Program-made: the position numbers and the translations under genes
The notes under the pieces: generated by a model
Databases searched by the model: none
The model's input: the letters and a program-made list of their open reading frames with translations, nothing else
Told to the model about the DNA's origin: nothing
In this document: positions 14,231 through 44,940 of the stretch, in pieces
Layout: each line of letters starts with the position of its first letter
How positions within the stretch are numbered: position 1 is the first letter of the stretch
DNA from: an uncultured cyanobacterium
Lineage (GTDB): Bacteria > Cyanobacteriota > Cyanobacteriia > Cyanobacteriales > CAWUOF01
Assembly: GCA_963744145.1 (NCBI GenBank)
Contig: CAVUSO010000001.1
Span: 7,136,001 to 7,200,000 of the forward strand
Length of the DNA: 64,000 nucleotides
Reading direction: 5' to 3'

Positions 14231-16123
14231 ATCTTCTCCAATCAACACTTGAAAAGCACTCATTTCCCGGAGAGAATCAAAATCAGCATTAGTTTTAGCG
14301 ATCGCTTTAAGTCTTTCTGGATCAATTTTAATGGCTTGGGCTAAATTTTCTATGGCTAAATCAGCTAAATTTTGTCGGGCATAACAACAAGCTTTATTAT
14401 ACCATCCATTTCCATAATCTGGTTTAATTTCAATCGCTTTGTGGTAACATTCTATTGCTTCTTCATAACGATCTAACTTATTTAAAGCATTGCCCAAATT
14501 ATTCCAAAGTGAATGATTATTAGGTTCAATGGAAAGAGCTTTTTCACAGCATACTATTGCTTCTTTATAGAGTTCCATTTTCATTAATATTTGGCTTCTA
14601 TTCTGCCAAGCTTTGACTAATTCTGGATGAATTTCAATACTTTTATCATAAGCTTTTAATGCTTCCTCATATTTCGACAAATTACCCAACATTAGGGCTT
14701 TATTATACCAATAATTATAATTATTAGGCTGACTCTTAATAGCTTGATCATAAGCAGCGATCGCTTCTTCATATCGTTCTAAACAGCCTAATTCTATCGC
14801 CCGATTATATAAGGCATTTAAAAAACTTGGTTGAATACTTAAGACTTTTTCATAAGCATCTAAAGCAGCTTCATGTTGAGACAACTTACTTAATCCTACA
14901 CCTTTATTATACCAAGCCTCATAATAATCCGGTTTCAAAGTAATTGCTTGTTCAAAACTAGCGATCGCTTCTGTATATCGACCTAATTTATGCCAAACAA
15001 ATCCTTGATTATACCAAGCTTTATAAGCATCTGGTTTGACCGCGATCGCTTGGGATTGAGCAGCAATAGCTTCTTCATATCTTTCTAAATTTGCCAAAAC
15101 ATTTCCTTTCCCAATCCAAGCATTACAAGTATCTTTAATCAGCCAATCTTGAACAGAAGATTTTGGTTTAATTGCTAGCGATCGCTCATAAGAAATAAGT
15201 GCTTCATCGTATCTTTTTAATTTATTTAAAATATTTCCTCGATTCTGCCAAGTTCCCGCTCTATTTGGGTTTAACTTAATTGCTTGATTAAAACAAAACA
15301 GTGCTTTTTCATTTTTATCCATTTTCATTAACCCAAATCCCAGGATATCCCAAACATCATAGATACCGATTTTTTTCTGAACTATATTAATTACAATTAC
15401 CGTACCAATAAATAGACCAATAATCCAAATAAGATCATTTTGATGAAAGAAAAAAGCCCCGTAGGAAGCCAAAGTGCTTGGGATTCCAATCAAATCACCA
15501 ATCAGAAATGTGAGTGATAACAAAAATAAATTTACTGGTGGAATTAAAAATATAATTATAAAGATACCAAGCATTCCCAATCCAGCAAATTTGCGAATTT
15601 GAGTTCGCAGAGAAATTGGTAACCAAGGTTCAATAATCCCATAACCATCTAAGGGAGGAATCGGTAATAAATTAATTAGAACTGCATAGATTTGGAGAAT
15701 AATCAGAAATGCTAAAGATGCCCAAATCCAACCATACTGTTGGGGGGATAACCAAAAACCGGATCGATCGGTTTGGATGAAGTGTAAGGTCAAGCGAAAA
15801 GGTATGGTCAGGAATAAAATCAACAGGATATTTGTCAGCGGACCAGCACCAGCAACTAGACTTTGACAGTAGCGATTACGTAACTTGCTTCGATCGATAT
15901 AAACCGCAGCTCCAGGGAGAGCAATTCCACCCAGACATAGAAAAATCACGGGGAGAATAATACTACCGAGGGGATCGATATATTTAAGAGGATTAAGAGT
16001 TAAGTAACCCTTATCTTTAACCGAAGTATCTCCACCCCAATAAGCAGCGATCGCATGACCAAATTCATGGAGACAAATTGAGATTAACCAACCCAAACAG
16101 ACAAAAACTGTAACAGATAACAA
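14228..16123 (-). CDS. Site-2 protease (M50) fused to a TPR array
   Basis: HEFGH and NLLPIPPLDG motifs, followed by about ten 34-aa TPR repeats. Confidence 0.9.
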   Translation of the reverse strand: MLSVTVFVCLGWLISICLHEFGHAIAAYWGGDTSVKDKGYLTLNPLKYIDPLGSIILPVIFLCLGGIALPGAAVYIDRSKLRNRYCQSLVAGAGPLTNILLILFLTIPFRLTLHFIQTDRSGFWLSPQQYGWIWASLAFLIILQIYAVLINLLPIPPLDGYGIIEPWLPISLRTQIRKFAGLGMLGIFIIIFLIPPVNLFLLSLTFLIGDLIGIPSTLASYGAFFFHQNDLIWIIGLFIGTVIVINIVQKKIGIYDVWDILGFGLMKMDKNEKALFCFNQAIKLNPNRAGTWQNRGNILNKLKRYDEALISYERSLAIKPKSSVQDWLIKDTCNAWIGKGNVLANLERYEEAIAAQSQAIAVKPDAYKAWYNQGFVWHKLGRYTEAIASFEQAITLKPDYYEAWYNKGVGLSKLSQHEAALDAYEKVLSIQPSFLNALYNRAIELGCLERYEEAIAAYDQAIKSQPNNYNYWYNKALMLGNLSKYEEALKAYDKSIEIHPELVKAWQNRSQILMKMELYKEAIVCCEKALSIEPNNHSLWNNLGNALNKLDRYEEAIECYHKAIEIKPDYGNGWYNKACCYARQNLADLAIENLAQAIKIDPERLKAIAKTNADFDSLREMSAFQVLIGED

Positions 16124-16214
16124 AGTTTTGCCTCAATTTTGGAAATACTTAAACTATTTGATTATCACAAAAAAAGATCAGAGTGTCAGTTCAGATCAAA
16201 ATATTTTTTTTTCA

Positions 16215-17327
16215 CTAACCTAAAAACCTGGTTAAATCTGGCACATCTACCCATGTACCAGTAGCGTGAGATTCGTGAGTTAAATCGATTAACAACTGAG
16301 AATAAACCCCTTCGCGTAAAGTTGGGGTGATTGCTTGACCACGCTCAATTCCTTCTACCCATCGGTCAACAATTCGGATAAATGGTGCTAAACGACCATC
16401 TAAATAAGTTTCAGGAAATTCTAGATGAGAGGGAAGATCAAGCTCGGTCAAAGATTCACCATGAGGAGCAGCCCAAAGTCGAAAACCATGGATATAATCT
16501 TTCTGACTCTCATTACCTAAAATTATCGTACCCTTACTCCCATAAACTTCCACCCAATGTCCACGTCCTTGATCAGTCACGGAACTAACACAAAGATGAC
16601 ATGGTGTCCCATCGGTCAATTCCAACATAATCATACAAGTATCATCAGCATCAACTGGTCGAAATTTACCACCTGCGGTAGGATCGGGACGTAAAGGAAT
16701 TGCAGTAGTGAGATGTCCAGATAAGCGTCGGATTGGTCCAAATAACCAGCTAATATAATCAAAACTATGGGATGCGATCGCACCGAGAGCACCTCCACCT
16801 TGATCTTGACGAGAATACCAATTCCAAGCTCGATTGGGATCACTCCGACTAGAAACTAACCAATCGATTTTAATTAAACGTTTTTGACCAATATACCCAG
16901 CTGCTAACATTTCTGCTAACATTTGCCAGTGCGGGATACAACGAAATTCAAAATCCATCATCCCAATTACATTTTGGGATTTGGCTAAATGGTAAAGTTC
17001 CTTAGCTTCTATGGCTGATAGTGTGGTAGGTTTTTCTAATAAAAGATGTTTTTTTGCAATCAAGACAGATTTGGCCATTTCATAGTGCAGAAATGGGGGT
17101 GTAGAAATGCTGACTGCTTGGACATGGGGATTGTCCAGAATTTCGGTGAGGCTGTCGCTACTATAGGGAATATGGTGATTATTCGCGATCGCTTGAGCTT
17201 GAGCTAAATTGCGGTGATAGACTGCGACTACTTCAGTCTGAGGATGGATTTGGAATCCAGGAATATGAATTTTTTGACCAAATCCAGTCCCAACTACCGC
17301 AATACCGATTTTTGAGGAGAGTGACAT
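16215..17327 (-). CDS. Gfo/Idh/MocA oxidoreductase
   Basis: VVGTGFG, HLLLEKP, GGGAL motifs. Confidence 0.9.
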   Translation of the reverse strand: MSLSSKIGIAVVGTGFGQKIHIPGFQIHPQTEVVAVYHRNLAQAQAIANNHHIPYSSDSLTEILDNPHVQAVSISTPPFLHYEMAKSVLIAKKHLLLEKPTTLSAIEAKELYHLAKSQNVIGMMDFEFRCIPHWQMLAEMLAAGYIGQKRLIKIDWLVSSRSDPNRAWNWYSRQDQGGGALGAIASHSFDYISWLFGPIRRLSGHLTTAIPLRPDPTAGGKFRPVDADDTCMIMLELTDGTPCHLCVSSVTDQGRGHWVEVYGSKGTIILGNESQKDYIHGFRLWAAPHGESLTELDLPSHLEFPETYLDGRLAPFIRIVDRWVEGIERGQAITPTLREGVYSQLLIDLTHESHATGTWVDVPDLTRFLG

Positions 17328-17425
17328 AACCTAGCTACCTATTTTTCTTAGTGCATCATTTAACCATCAATTTCGGTAGCTAGATCAACAGAATCACCTC
17401 AAATATCCAAAATTCTATTATTGAT

Positions 17426-17569
17426 TTAAGAATTATTTTTAACATCATTGAGAGCTGGTCCAGAATGATGATTATGATTAATAACCAACCATCGACCAGT
17501 AGAAGGATCGCGATAAACCGCGTAAGGATTAGGTTTGAGATTTTTGCTAACAGTTTGCGGGTTAGTCAT
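17426..17569 (-). CDS. 47-aa microprotein
   Basis: MTNPQTVSKNLKPNPYAVYRDPSTGRWLVINHNHHSGPALNDVKNNS*, with an AGGAG RBS; paralog immediately upstream. Confidence 0.7.
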   Translation of the reverse strand: MTNPQTVSKNLKPNPYAVYRDPSTGRWLVINHNHHSGPALNDVKNNS

Positions 17570-17612
17570 TTTCGGAAGCTCCTGGGGTCGAGCGAAGATT
17601 GAGACTAAGGTA

Positions 17613-17720
17613 CTAATTATTCGGTTTAATTACGATCCACTTACCAGTTTGGGGATCGCGATAAGTGGTATAGGGATTAGCTCGCAATGGTTTGGGACAA
17701 GTAGTTAAATTTTTCATCAT
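17613..17720 (-). CDS. 35-aa microprotein
   Basis: MMKNLTTCPKPLRANPYTTYRDPQTGKWIVIKPNN*, with a GAGG RBS. Confidence 0.7.
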   Translation of the reverse strand: MMKNLTTCPKPLRANPYTTYRDPQTGKWIVIKPNN

Positions 17721-18027
17721 ACCCTGCCTCTTGTTTATAAGTTAATTGTAAATAGTTTTCTCGATCTCCTTCAGTGACTCCTATCTTGATGCCAATGTGA
17801 CAAACTAAGGGTTAAACTGGCGATCGCTGTCACTTTCACATTAATTAGGTAGCTGCATTAATTATGTAACTGCTCGCAGCTTGACTCTTAAAAATCTTGC
17901 TCATCAGGGAACTACTAGGAGTTTTTCCCCATCTTTATAGATACAACTTTGGGGAATTGCTGCGGATCAGTCTAGTTATTTATACTTAGTTTACTAAAGG
18001 TAGAGCCCAGATGAGAAAATTGCCCAT

Positions 18028-18102
18028 AAAAAAAGGGACGGAGGGTAGACATTTTCCCGAGGTGCCCTCAATCGTCCCAAGTTTGATCAACACTATTGTT
18101 TT
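18028..18102 (-). ncRNA. Candidate sRNA B
   Basis: -10-like TAGGAT (18115-18110); GGGACG...CGTCCC hairpin followed by T7; paralog of candidate A. Confidence 0.5.
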
Positions 18103-18124
18103 AACTCAAATCCTATCCAGAAAG

Positions 18125-18151
18125 CAATCTGGGGAGTGTCGGGGGTGAATA
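18125..18151 (-). promoter_or_regulatory. Conserved upstream motif, copy B
   Basis: TATTCACCCCCGACACTCCCCAGATTG; 26/27 identical to 18341..18367. Confidence 0.65.
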
Positions 18152-18233
18152 GTTATTTTTTTTGGGGGGGACTAGCCGATCGGGAATGGTTAATTTATTG
18201 CACAATGATCAATAGTTCGATTTTAATCACAAC

Positions 18234-18318
18234 AAAAAGGACGGTTCGACATCTCCGGTGATGTCACAACCGTCCCGCCTCTGACATGGTGCGCTTGTTG
18301 CCAACGCTCCTTTTTTGT
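18234..18318 (-). ncRNA. Candidate sRNA A
   Basis: -10-like GATGAT (18331-18326); GGACGGTT-GT-GACATC-ACCGGA-GATGTC-G-AACCGTCC hairpin followed by T5. Confidence 0.5.
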
Positions 18319-18340
18319 ACCGCAAATCATCTCAATTACA

Positions 18341-18367
18341 CAATCTGGGGAGTATCGGGGGTGAATA
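18341..18367 (-). promoter_or_regulatory. Conserved upstream motif, copy A
   Basis: TATTCACCCCCGATACTCCCCAGATTG, 216 bp from copy B. Confidence 0.65.
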
Positions 18368-18382
18368 ATTTTTCTGTGGGTT

Positions 18383-19174
18383 TTAAATTTGTGATGCCAC
18401 TTTTTGGGCGACAAACATATAATTCTGACAAAGTAAGGAGAATGGATATTTAAGTAAATTATCGCTGTAGTTCCACAGAGCTGCTATTAGTCGGGAATTG
18501 CGCCCAAATTTCGGCCCAAGTTCCCAGAAATTTCTCGGTAAAAGACCATATCGTTGGATTTCTAAAAGAGCAAACTGGGTTTGCTGACATAAGGTTTTGA
18601 TCTGAGCTTGGGTATAACGGTAACGATGGTGATGTTTACCAGGAATTTGGGACGCGATCGCTTCGATCAGGCTAAATTGATTGGGAAAATGATAACAAAT
18701 AAAATAACCTCCGGGTTTGAGAATTCTGGAAATTTCTTGTAAGCTGTCAATTTCGCTCCCAGAGGTTTCTCGGACATGTTCGAGTACCCCAACAGACACA
18801 ACTGCATCAAATTTACCTGTGGTCGCAGAAATAAGCTGTGGGTGGGCGTAATTTCCTAGCTCAAACTCGTAGTTTTGACTATCAAAATATCGGCGAAAAT
18901 AAAAATCGTCGAAAGAAAATCCCACAGTTTGGTAACCGGATTTTAACAGAAAGTAAGAAAAGTGACCATTACCACATCCCCAGTCCAGTACAGTTTTGCC
19001 AGTGGGGATATACTTTCGTAAAGTCTGGTAAAGCAGGGTATACTGATGGGCACTTACTAGACTTCGGAATTGTCGTAGATTGCAATGATGATCCTGTTCC
19101 TGAATTTTGATCAGTTCCCAAATTATTTGCTCTGAGGTTAAAGGGTTAAATTCTCTAATTTTTGGAGGTTGCAT
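18383..19174 (-). CDS. Class I SAM-dependent methyltransferase
   Basis: VLDWGCGNG, FDAVVSVGVLEHV, RILKPGG. Confidence 0.9.
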   Translation of the reverse strand: MQPPKIREFNPLTSEQIIWELIKIQEQDHHCNLRQFRSLVSAHQYTLLYQTLRKYIPTGKTVLDWGCGNGHFSYFLLKSGYQTVGFSFDDFYFRRYFDSQNYEFELGNYAHPQLISATTGKFDAVVSVGVLEHVRETSGSEIDSLQEISRILKPGGYFICYHFPNQFSLIEAIASQIPGKHHHRYRYTQAQIKTLCQQTQFALLEIQRYGLLPRNFWELGPKFGRNSRLIAALWNYSDNLLKYPFSLLCQNYMFVAQKVASQI

Positions 19175-19287
19175 TTAGCTATAATTTGATTTGCCTTGAT
19201 TGCTGATTATGATCGAATTATCGGTAATTAATACTGATTAGCTGAAAAATTTTTATAAAAAATTATCAATCATCGTCAATTTGTCCA

Positions 19288-20379
19288 TTGTTTATTCCCC
19301 TAAACATGAATCAAAAACCTGCAAGTTATTTTGGAAATTGCCTAAATAGTTTGGCATTAATTCGCTTTTTATTATTCTTTGTTTCTGGTTGGGCATTAGT
19401 CCAATGTTTGACTTATTTTCAAAGCATAATTGTCATTTTTATATTTGCTGCAATTTTAGCGTTTTTACTGAGCTATCCCGCTCGATTACTAAGTTCTTTT
19501 TTACCACATAACTTTGCCGTTAGTTTAGTTTTTTTATTGAGTATTTTAATCCTGTTAATTCTTACCATTACAGTGGGAGTATCAATTTCATCCCAAGAGC
19601 ATGAACTGTTAGAGAGTGTCACTACTTTTTTTAGCACCCTTAAACCTTTAGTAGAAAATTTAGAACAATTTCTGCGTCATCGCAATCTTCATGTAGATTT
19701 ACGGGGGATTGAAGAACCTTTACGAAATCAAGCTTTAGCATTTATTGGGGGAATTATCAGCATTTTTCAAATCTTATTTACAAATCTAATTACTTTAATG
19801 CTCATTGCGGTGGTAGCATTTTTCATGTTATTAGATGGGGAAAAACTCTGGTATTTTCTCCTCAGATTATTTCCCAGTCAGATTGGCGATCGCATTACTA
19901 GTATCATTCAGCGGAATTTTTTGGGATTTTTTCGCGGACAGTTAATTCTATGTTTATTTCTTAGTATTTCGAGCTTTATTGTGTTTTTAATTTTGCAAAT
20001 ACCTTTTGCTTTAATCTTAGCGTTGACCATCGGATTGCTTGATCTAATTCCAGGAATTGGGGCGACATTAGGAATTGGGTTAACTGGTTTAATCTTATTA
20101 CCTAAAAGTGTTTGGTTAGCTATGCAAGTATTGATAATTTGTCTAATTCTTCAACAAATTCAAGATAATTTAGTGACTCCAAGGGTAATGCAAAATTCTC
20201 TCAACCTAAACCCAGTAGTAGTATTTTTTGCCTTATTAGTAGGTGCAAAAATTGCTGGTCTACTGGGAATTTTCTTAGCAATTCCCAGCACGGGAGTATT
20301 AGTAAGTTTATTTGAACTTGAAGAGATGAAGTCTGTTTCAGCAGCAGCAAAAGAATTAACAGATCACGAACAAATCTAA
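19288..20379 (+). CDS. AI-2E family transporter
   Basis: FFRGQL, DLIPGIGA, QQIQDNLVTPRVM, LNPV..FFALLVG. Confidence 0.9.
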   Translation: MFIPLNMNQKPASYFGNCLNSLALIRFLLFFVSGWALVQCLTYFQSIIVIFIFAAILAFLLSYPARLLSSFLPHNFAVSLVFLLSILILLILTITVGVSISSQEHELLESVTTFFSTLKPLVENLEQFLRHRNLHVDLRGIEEPLRNQALAFIGGIISIFQILFTNLITLMLIAVVAFFMLLDGEKLWYFLLRLFPSQIGDRITSIIQRNFLGFFRGQLILCLFLSISSFIVFLILQIPFALILALTIGLLDLIPGIGATLGIGLTGLILLPKSVWLAMQVLIICLILQQIQDNLVTPRVMQNSLNLNPVVVFFALLVGAKIAGLLGIFLAIPSTGVLVSLFELEEMKSVSAAAKELTDHEQI

Positions 20380-44832: not shown

Positions 44833-44940
44833 AAATTATTTTGATCGATAAATAATCTTAATTGTTCTTTAATATCTCAATTGTGATGAGATTTACACTA
44901 AAAGCTAAAATCATTATAAATAATTGCGGTAACCACAAGT

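Follow-up and report, generated by a model that had tools for sequence, protein, structure and literature searches.

Two tandem genes for microproteins of 35 and 47 amino acids (aa) are encoded on the minus strand of the DNA analyzed here, a stretch of 64,000 nucleotides (nt) from the genome of an uncultured cyanobacterium (contig CAVUSO010000001.1, positions 7,136,001 to 7,200,000), referred to below as the window. On the sequence evidence, both open reading frames (ORFs) are established as genuine, translated-looking paralogous genes under selection, and they belong to a new, unnamed, cyanobacteria-restricted microprotein family that has no model in the family libraries; the general kind, regulated bacterial microproteins, is known. 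We estimate at about 55% the probability that the two genes form a hairpin microprotein pair, probably bicistronic, that is controlled by a regulator of the CRP (cyclic AMP [cAMP] receptor protein) family and acts by binding a partner. The most informative feature of the locus is the architecture of the family's promoters, which the first-pass annotation of this DNA, made by inspection of the nucleotide sequence, had missed.

Among ORFs of at least 20 codons listed at the locus, the two that the first-pass annotation had described, each with a ribosome-binding site (RBS), are indeed present on the minus strand, with RBSs that can be read directly from the sequence (Table 1). The two proteins are 53% identical, with 18 invariant columns, and both contain L(R/K)xNPYxxYRDPxTGxW(I/L)VI, the residue before the tryptophan being Lys or Arg in the form of the motif originally given. 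In the 34 codons that can be aligned between the genes, 18 encode the same residue and six of these 18 are spelled differently, which confirms the several synonymous differences noted earlier; the proportion of nonsynonymous differences (pN) is 0.35 and that of synonymous differences (pS) is 0.58, and the DNA likeness of the two gene regions drops off beyond the coding parts. In a codon alignment of 27 family members, the invariant Arg is encoded by five codons, Thr by four, Gly by four and Pro by three or four, and a near-invariant Leu by six. Because these residues are spelled with up to six codons, selection acts on the protein, and the initial suggestion of protein-level selection is thereby strengthened by codon diversity, by the pN and pS values and by the occurrence of relatives in open frames. 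The overlapping plus-strand ORFs are antisense shadows, since all relatives found share the minus-strand frame. The 35-aa copy is up to 65% identical to orthologues elsewhere, compared with 53% to its 47-aa neighbour. The best full-length match of the 47-aa copy is the 35-aa copy; used alone as a query of a word index, the 47-aa protein, already a predicted protein in a public collection (P0001), matched only itself. As the 35-aa copy is nearer to outside orthologues than to its neighbour, the pattern is consistent with a tandem duplication long ago, after which gene 2 diverged faster. The two genes are separated by 43 nt and, because this spacer shows no promoter-like features by eye, they are probably co-transcribed as one bicistronic unit. 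A general promoter scan of the locus returned four promoter-like sites versus 3.2 expected.

The homologue search across cyanobacteria that had been proposed as a check on the motif recovered numerous relatives with a conserved frame. A six-frame search of the window's own genome finds these two copies only. Of 61 related genomes from 49 genera, 21 (17 genera) contain open-frame matches to a profile of the pair, in every case in the frame of the minus-strand ORFs. Sampling across the phylum revealed a patchy distribution: the family is held by 52 of 401 genomes, in 27 of 152 genera, with one to three copies per genome. It is near-universal in one taxonomic family (24 of 26 genomes) and present in 12 of 21 genomes of another, and was not found in a large taxonomic family of the same order (f7, 0/46), in a second one (33 genomes) or in 12 more (0/217). 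Both filamentous and unicellular lineages are represented, and the NCBI records, which list members only as hypothetical proteins, include Synechocystis sp. PCC 6803, whose member is annotated at 52 aa in one record (NHL97040.1). An index of 5.8 billion proteins yielded 156 proteins at E ≤ 0.001 among 348 candidates; among the 120 rows listed, each source-supplied name reads "hypothetical protein" with a cyanobacterium as its organism, and no row has a precomputed Pfam domain. A full HMMER pass of a 27-member profile over 1.84 billion representatives returned 297 proteins at E ≤ 0.001, each representing a cluster at 50% identity, and 134 at E ≤ 1e-10. Proteins of every length were included in that search, and among the best 150 of the 297 representatives, 149 have 31–138 aa; P0191, with 848 aa, was discarded as a low-complexity tandem repeat and not a relative. 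A word-index search limited to longer proteins gave one match, of 135 aa and without a domain. Fusion of the module to a known domain, found in neither the all-length nor the longer-protein search, was therefore rejected. At the DNA level, a degenerate pattern for NP(F/Y)xxYRDPxTGxW occurs in at least 121 stretches of a species-genome collection, and the 80 titled matches listed name cyanobacteria in 76 cases and "uncultured bacterium" in four. The same pattern had no match in 2.9 million viral contigs (IMG/VR) and tblastn against phage records gave E-values of 6–7 only, on which grounds a virus link was rejected.

The extracted ORFs conform to the consensus M-x(6-10)-PL(K/R/Q)xNP(F/Y)xxYRDPxTGxW(I/V)V(I/V)K, in which Pro, Arg, Thr, Gly and Trp are invariant in alignments of both 27 and 107 sequences. 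Neither window protein has a match above threshold in Pfam, where the only row is PF09003 (13 bits against a cut-off of 22), or any match in NCBIfam; PADLOC likewise returned nothing for the window proteins. In PHROGs, the 35-aa protein matched phrog_21340, of unknown function, at E 0.18 and a relative with two modules matched it at 1.5e-4, and the ESM Atlas contained only "hypothetical protein" clusters, with scores of 0.79–0.82. A full-text literature search with the family's peptide strings found no paper, and "YRDP" combined with cyanobacteria retrieved unrelated matches only.

An AlphaFold2 model of the 35-aa protein, built with the 107-sequence alignment, has a mean predicted local distance difference test score (pLDDT) of 84.5, rising to 95 over residues 21–30. 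It consists of two strands, residues 18–21 (TTYR) and 28–31 (WIVI), joined by the turn RDPQTGK and preceded by an N-terminal segment that is ordered but non-regular (pLDDT 75–86); the motif had been thought to look like a β-hairpin, and the model agrees. The family unit is thus confidently predicted to be a module of ~25 residues, PL(K/R/Q)xNP(F/Y)xxYRDPxTGxW(V/I)V, that folds by itself as a β-hairpin. In this model Asp-Pro-x-Thr-Gly would form the turn and Phe/Tyr, Tyr, Trp and Val a small hydrophobic cluster, so that most of the conserved positions appear to serve the needs of a self-stabilizing hairpin: a turn and a cluster of aromatic residues and valine. Designed mini-hairpins use a similar turn between aromatic residues. 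A structure search of the model against 48,161 solved chains gave no match with Z ≥ 2, as is expected for 35 residues. Beyond the hairpin the members carry tails that range from none to more than 100 residues (median ~21) and are probably disordered; some members end straight after the hairpin, with 25–32 aa and one to four residues beyond it. Among 227 distinct members, 72 end in Ala, 32 of them in Ala-Ala and 13 in Val-Ala, whereas Ala makes up only 9.8% of tail residues. Such endings resemble the non-polar C-terminal dipeptides recognized by ClpXP-type proteases, and by this analogy they may be degradation signals; both window proteins lack an Ala-Ala or Val-Ala ending.

Two modules occur in one chain in P0121–P0124, P0002, L016/L047 and L022, which make up at least three unrelated-looking subgroups. 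An adjacent gene pair only 43 nt apart was seen solely in the window, and one metagenome bin has two copies ~1 kb apart. Two-module chains and tandem genes hint that two modules may work together. The AlphaFold2 model of a two-module relative (mean pLDDT 54.5, predicted template modelling score 0.22) shows two separate hairpins without confident packing, and a complex prediction for the 47-aa and 35-aa proteins (score 0.05, mark 0.32) is evidence for neither side.

The upstream 300 nt of the start codons of 151 family genes were clustered (75% identity over 80 nt) into 87 regions and compared with 159 control regions, taken upstream of non-family genes at these loci, and with dinucleotide shuffles. 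The palindrome TGTGA-N6-TCACA is present with at most one mismatch in 21 of the 87 family regions versus one of the 159 controls (0.7 in shuffles), and with at most two mismatches in 49 versus 15 (11.0 ± 3.1 in shuffles); the corresponding Fisher p values, 9e-10 and 5e-15, are overstated, as related loci are not independent. Forty of the 49 palindromes with up to two mismatches start between −150 and −75 from the ATG, and 45 are without a HIP1-like GATCGC. Once the regions were aligned on this site, extra copies of its right half became apparent downstream. Pairs of sense-strand (A/G)TCAC are spaced by 22 nt in 36 cases, 23 nt in 20 and 44–46 nt in 32, and any other spacing from 5 to 60 nt accounts for three pairs or fewer; half-sites 22–23 nt apart would share one face of the helix. 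Triples of such phased half-sites are found in 19 and doubles in 34 of the 87 family regions, with neither in the 159 controls; the antisense strand of the family regions has no triples and four doubles. Twelve of the 19 triples begin with the right arm of a palindrome that has no more than one mismatch in its left arm. A TANNNT box, sought at +25 to +30 from the third half-site, lies at +27, +28 or +30 in 17 of the 19 triples, and at 27–28 nt in 16; it is thus 21–22 nt past the TCAC(A) of the last half-site. Altogether, 48 of the 87 promoters have at least one of two features, a palindrome where expected or phased half-sites. Judging from the sequences, the promoter looks like an activating CRP position, next to the −10 box, to which sites two and four helical turns upstream have been added, the farthest being a full palindrome. 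We did not find this three-site phased architecture described in the literature. Other motifs do not explain the regions: strict NtcA-type GTA-N8-TAC occurs in seven of 87 (3.5 in shuffles), HLR1 half-sites in 11 (10.7 in shuffles), and LexA-like and Fur-like sites in none, and all four were rejected.

The window's own promoter appears to have the family architecture with a weakened distal site (Table 1). The degenerate palindrome AGTGACAGCGATCGCC starts at −114 from the ATG of gene 1, where relatives have a good palindrome, and two half-sites follow it in phase. From the predicted −10 hexamer, transcription would start near position 17738 and give a 5′ untranslated region of ~18 nt including the RBS.

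The genome contains seven matches to the CRP-type helix-turn-helix domain, five of them above the cut-off. One of these regulators, a 236-aa protein (L176:1495-2202), has as its closest solved relatives the cAMP receptor proteins of Thermus (E 1.7e-26) and Mycobacterium (3e-20) and the Escherichia coli CAP (~4e-17); its cAMP-CRP relatives span E 1.7e-26 to 1e-17, compared with only 1.5e-11 for NtcA, and its recognition helix, RETVTRVL, is matched in the alignment by RETVSRVL in Thermus CRP. By sequence, then, the genome encodes a true CRP orthologue. Perfect palindromes are intergenic in eight of 11 cases, although only ~19% of the genome is intergenic by a rough ORF call, and the genes next to the best sites include those for a diguanylate cyclase (GGDEF), a histidine kinase with a GAF domain, a pilin-like protein, a DUF4388 (PATAN-type) response regulator and a CHASE2-GGDEF-EAL protein, a set that resembles the motility and signalling flavour reported for SyCRP1. 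A CRP orthologue (57–83% identity) is present in 136 of the 401 sampled genomes and, from a reading of two tables, in 51 of the 52 that hold the microprotein. This nesting is what dependence of the gene on CRP would produce.

Phased arrays are also found elsewhere in the genome. Chains of three to four direct (A/G)TCAC half-sites at 22–23 nt occur 14 times (19 overlapping triples); other pairs of spacings from 10 to 35 nt give 0–2, and the chance expectation is 0.22. All 14 arrays are intergenic and none is in the window (examples are C1:1097942, 1426087, 2483090, 3262212, 4606563, 5340059, 6775187 and 7510084 of this genome, G000), and seven of the 14 begin with a left arm at most one mismatch from TGTGA. 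They look like a genome-wide class of regulatory arrays. Seven of the 14 are followed within 60–130 nt by ORFs of 60–73 aa (Table 1), which constitute a second paralogous family without a Pfam match and with the consensus ..IT..DR...L..L.....E....I.RL....RRG.I..ID. A separate CRP-type site with one mismatch, TGTGATGAGATTTACA, lies at 44882–44897 of the window (G000:C1:7180882), in a short gap between two divergent ORFs.

Table 1. Coordinates of the microprotein genes, their expression signals and neighbouring or related features. Positions are those of the window unless preceded by G000:C1, which denotes the contig in the window's genome.
Feature	Position	Strand	Remarks
Microprotein gene 1	17613..17720	minus	35 aa, MMKNLTTCPKPLRANPYTTYRDPQTGKWIVIKPNN; 34 aa if the second ATG is the start; core PLRANPYTTYRDPQTGKWIVIK
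Microprotein gene 2	17426..17569	minus	47 aa, MTNPQTVSKNLKPNPYAVYRDPSTGRWLVINHNHHSGPALNDVKNNS; diverged tandem paralogue, tail 13 residues longer
Shine-Dalgarno-like element of gene 1	17722..17732	minus	AAGAGGCAGGG, purine-rich, 5′ of gene 1; read from sequence
Shine-Dalgarno element of gene 2	17578..17584	minus	CAGGAGC, 9 nt 5′ of the gene 2 ATG, within the 43-nt spacer; from sequence
Degenerate CRP-type palindrome	17819..17834	minus	AGTGACAGCGATCGCC; 3 mismatches to TGTGA-N6-TCACA; right arm overlapped by HIP1 GCGATCGC
Second phased half-site	17796..17801	minus	GTCACA, 23 nt past the right half of the palindrome
Third, promoter-proximal half-site	17773..17778	minus	GTCACT, 23 nt past the second
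Predicted −10 hexamer	17745..17750	minus	TACAAT, 28 nt from the start and 22 nt from the end of GTCACT
Gfo/Idh/MocA oxidoreductase	16215-17327	minus	same strand as gene 2; starts 98 nt beyond its end
Second-family ORFs	G000:C1 1426210-1426428, 2483284-2483481, 3262338-3262520	plus	array-associated
Second-family ORFs	G000:C1 7509758-7509958, 5339737-5339937, 4606242-4606442, 3723318-3723497	minus	array-associated

Translation signals of a distinctive form were also observed in other genomes. An extended RBS, GGAGTG(C/T)(A/G)T(C), precedes family genes at, for example, L026, L030, L039, L086, L095, L096, L108 and L126; GGAGTG is present in 25 of the 87 regions versus 4.5 in shuffles, and the 9-mer in 12 versus 0.3. 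It is usually in frame with the ATG, with an intervening stop codon in L070, and the leaders of the window genes have no extended RBS of this form. Between gene 1 and the methyltransferase gene upstream of it, positions 17721–18382 of the window comprise 660 nt without an ORF of 80 or more codons and include a T8-G7 run near 18150–18170 and several HIP1 sites; a search of positions 16000–19500 against Rfam gave no match.

In the mechanism that we propose, a CRP-family regulator of the cAMP receptor type encoded in the genome would switch the genes on, with the promoter-proximal half-site, 21–22 nt 5′ of the −10 box, placed as activating CRP sites are in known cyanobacterial promoters. The hairpins would then dock stoichiometrically onto a macromolecular partner, rather than serve as enzymes, modified-peptide precursors or leader peptides. 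The identity of the bound regulator, activation by cAMP, co-transcription, the mode of binding and the partner are all parts of this scheme that we infer. A protein partner is favoured by analogy, because characterized cyanobacterial small regulators bind proteins and because charge is not conserved in the family. Several observations weigh against the scheme. The window's palindrome has three mismatches and is followed by two exact phased half-sites only, so that the promoter is strictly a double and not a palindrome site. Neither feature is seen in 39 of the 87 family promoters, including whole subfamilies; because of this, CRP-type control applies to much of the family but not to the whole of it. 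The co-occurrence with CRP is heavily confounded by phylogeny: entire taxonomic families possess CRP and are devoid of the microprotein, such as f7, in which 41 of 46 genomes have CRP and none has the microprotein. Conversely, genome G196 (locus L183) has the microprotein, a palindrome with one mismatch and phased half-sites, and no CRP orthologue at E ≤ 1e-45; either the gene was missed by the assembly or another regulator acts on the site. The half-site arrays could be the targets of a different CRP/FNR-family member or of an unrelated regulator. Since no terminator was predicted after gene 2 by the promoter and terminator scan, read-through into the oxidoreductase gene is possible. Finally, net charge across members varies from −5 to +12, which points to neither a protein nor a nucleic-acid target.

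If the promoter repeats were read by a non-CRP regulator, be it another CRP/FNR member or an unrelated protein that binds direct repeats at a distance of two helical turns, the cAMP link would be wrong and the microprotein reading would stand. This is a rather unlikely alternative, albeit the one that fares best. It would account for the presence of a palindrome at the distal site only, the two proximal sites keeping one half; at least five proteins of the genome score above the CRP-type helix-turn-helix cut-off, and the 14 genomic arrays mostly precede the second small-protein family and not the pilus and signalling genes that have plain palindromes. However, the palindrome is the canonical TGTGA-N6-TCACA that SyCRP1 and AnCrp bind according to PMC2633013, the proximal half-site is placed as the promoter-proximal half of an activating CRP site, and the CRP orthologue carries the matching recognition helix.

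The main alternative to a protein partner is a nucleic-acid target: the basic hairpin would fit into a groove of DNA or RNA, as does the β-sheet of integrase arm-binding or AP2-type domains, and the microproteins would be small transcriptional or post-transcriptional regulators. The arm-binding domain of lambda integrase shows a faint local resemblance (PF09003, E 0.11, 13 bits), and the family profile aligns LkpNPFtTYRDPkTGr with IRNNGYYCYRDPRTGK of 1kjk at E 0.38. The median net charge of the members is +3, and the 35-aa copy in the window has six Lys/Arg residues versus one Asp. Against this, the scores lie under any threshold, the third strand and the helix of the arm-binding fold are absent, and the structure search retrieved no match at Z ≥ 2; furthermore, 51 of the 227 members have a net charge of 0 or below, and the residue before the Trp is Glu in six of 27. 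We consider this explanation unlikely, a little more so than the one invoking a different regulator.

Gene neighbourhoods bear on the two remaining proposals. Neighbours were annotated at 28 loci with 1.5-kb flanks, and 645 ORFs from ~80 loci with 5-kb flanks were clustered and the recurrent clusters annotated. The synteny check across cyanobacteria came out negative: no partner gene is conserved across ~110 loci, and neighbours are shared only within lineages. Three loci have cpcT upstream, three have an amidase and a sucrose synthase, and in Microcoleus a long-tailed subfamily is flanked by two histidine kinases. Five marine bins have an α/β hydrolase downstream; other neighbours are an EamA transporter in convergent orientation, a short-chain dehydrogenase and, in two loci, pilin-like genes. 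In the window, a class I methyltransferase gene lies 660 nt upstream of gene 1. Neither it nor the oxidoreductase recurs with the family, and L026 alone has another, unrelated methyltransferase as a neighbour, so that the functional tie to the methyltransferase at which the first-pass annotation hinted finds no backing.

That methyltransferase had been mentioned in connection with a possible role of the pair as precursors of ribosomally synthesized and post-translationally modified peptides (RiPPs). In such a reading, the conserved N-terminal part would be a leader, recognized by a maturation enzyme encoded elsewhere, and the variable tail would be the core. The division into a conserved part and a variable C-terminal tail does resemble leader-core peptides, and some cyanobacterial RiPP precursors lie far from their enzymes. 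The proposal is nevertheless highly improbable. No maturation enzyme or methyltransferase recurrently adjoins the family in the ~110 loci, and several members (for example of 25, 31 and 32 aa) stop one to four residues beyond the hairpin, leaving no core peptide. The tails lack a common cleavage motif and have a low Cys content (1.2%), only one to three copies are found per genome, and the conserved part is predicted as a folded hairpin rather than an extended leader. An equally remote proposal is that the microproteins are leader or attenuator peptides regulating a downstream gene, here that of the oxidoreductase, which lies on the same strand with no terminator predicted in between; the downstream genes, however, vary by lineage (α/β hydrolase, short-chain dehydrogenase, histidine kinases, pilin-like) or are on the opposite strand, the amino-acid sequence itself is conserved over the phylum, beyond what mere translation requires, and the genes have an elaborate promoter of their own. 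Both proposals are disfavoured by the lack of recurrent neighbours and by members whose chain stops just past the hairpin. The observation holds up and goes beyond a bare pair of small ORFs, and the RiPP suggestion should be dropped.

A more specific extension of CRP control with partner binding, which we put forward tentatively and regard as possible rather than probable, is that the hairpin microprotein is a conserved output of cAMP-CRP that docks onto the machinery of surface behaviour (type IV pili, phototaxis, cyclic di-GMP), and that the three-site promoter marks a wider microprotein regulon. Of all parts of bacterial genomes, small proteins have been charted the least, and several of them in cyanobacteria are master metabolic switches; here, a widespread family has neither a name, nor a library model, nor a paper that we could find. 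The distinctive CRP-type switch in front of the gene in many relatives points to an unrecognized small signalling effector. The promoter offers a concrete, testable handle. The cyanobacterial CRP regulon has so far been described as lineage-specific and without a common core; if the microprotein is indeed an output of cAMP-CRP, no earlier CRP target would have been retained in so many genera. Should the link to cAMP prove true, removal of a single tiny gene from a model strain could uncover a missing step from cAMP to motility or aggregation. The predicted natural hairpin of ~25 residues that folds autonomously would also be of interest for peptide design.

Comparison with solved structures identifies two proteins with local resemblance to the family. 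In the arm-type domain of lambda integrase (PF09003; PDB, 1kjk), a YRDPxTGK hairpin follows an aromatic-rich strand, as it does in the family; membership in that domain family was rejected, given 13 bits against 22, a profile E of 0.38, two predicted strands without a helix, and a context that is not a recombinase. The Thermus thermophilus glycyl-tRNA synthetase (PDB, 1ati and 1b76) has a segment, AYRDPETGKWFV, in which twelve residues are near-exact to the family core (E 0.007). This is a short stretch in an enzyme of 505 residues with nothing in common outside the segment, and the match is most simply a recurrent hairpin-turn sequence that constitutes no evidence of common descent or function.

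The CRP side of the comparison rests on Xu and Su (2009, PMC2633013). There, SyCRP1 and AnCrp are assigned the consensus TGTGA-N6-TCACA, with slr1667-slr1668, slr2015-2018 and slr0442 among the targets; CRP-activated cyanobacterial promoters have a TAN3T −10 box ~22 bp downstream of the CRP site, and no CRP-controlled gene set is common to most of the 12 genomes. The family shares with these promoters the consensus, the −10 spacing and a CRP orthologue in the genome. It differs from known CRP promoters in having three sites phased at 22–23 nt, of which the distal one alone is palindromic, and it keeps CRP-type sites across many genera, in contrast to the absence of a common regulon in PMC2633013. 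Family members may already be among the "hypothetical" targets in the supplement of that study. Small proteins do not figure in a preprint about CdgR and SyCRP1.

As regards size and mode of action, the closest parallels are the cyanobacterial regulatory small proteins covered by the review of Kraus and Hess (2024, PMC11848123), namely NirP1, PirA, PirC, NblA, NblD, SliP4, AtpTheta, AcnSP and CP12, which according to that review bind key enzymes or complexes and act in this way; its headings and section 1.1 do not name the family. Like these regulators, the family's members are products of stand-alone genes, well under 100 aa, too small for catalysis and probably expressed from regulated promoters of their own. 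Unlike them, they consist of a unit that is a single β-hairpin of ~25 residues, are preceded by a CRP-type promoter, and have no sequence relation to those proteins detectable with Pfam or NCBIfam. A further lead comes from Ncr1420, a former small RNA of Synechocystis sp. PCC 6803 that, according to a 2026 preprint (bioRxiv 10.64898/2025.12.20.695498), encodes a translated 52-aa protein supported by six peptides, with homologues of similar size in many cyanobacteria and no function assigned. Because the member of our family in this strain is also annotated at 52 aa, Ncr1420 is a candidate for the family gene; their identity is not established and equal length makes it a lead only. If the two are the same, translation of one family member has already been shown.

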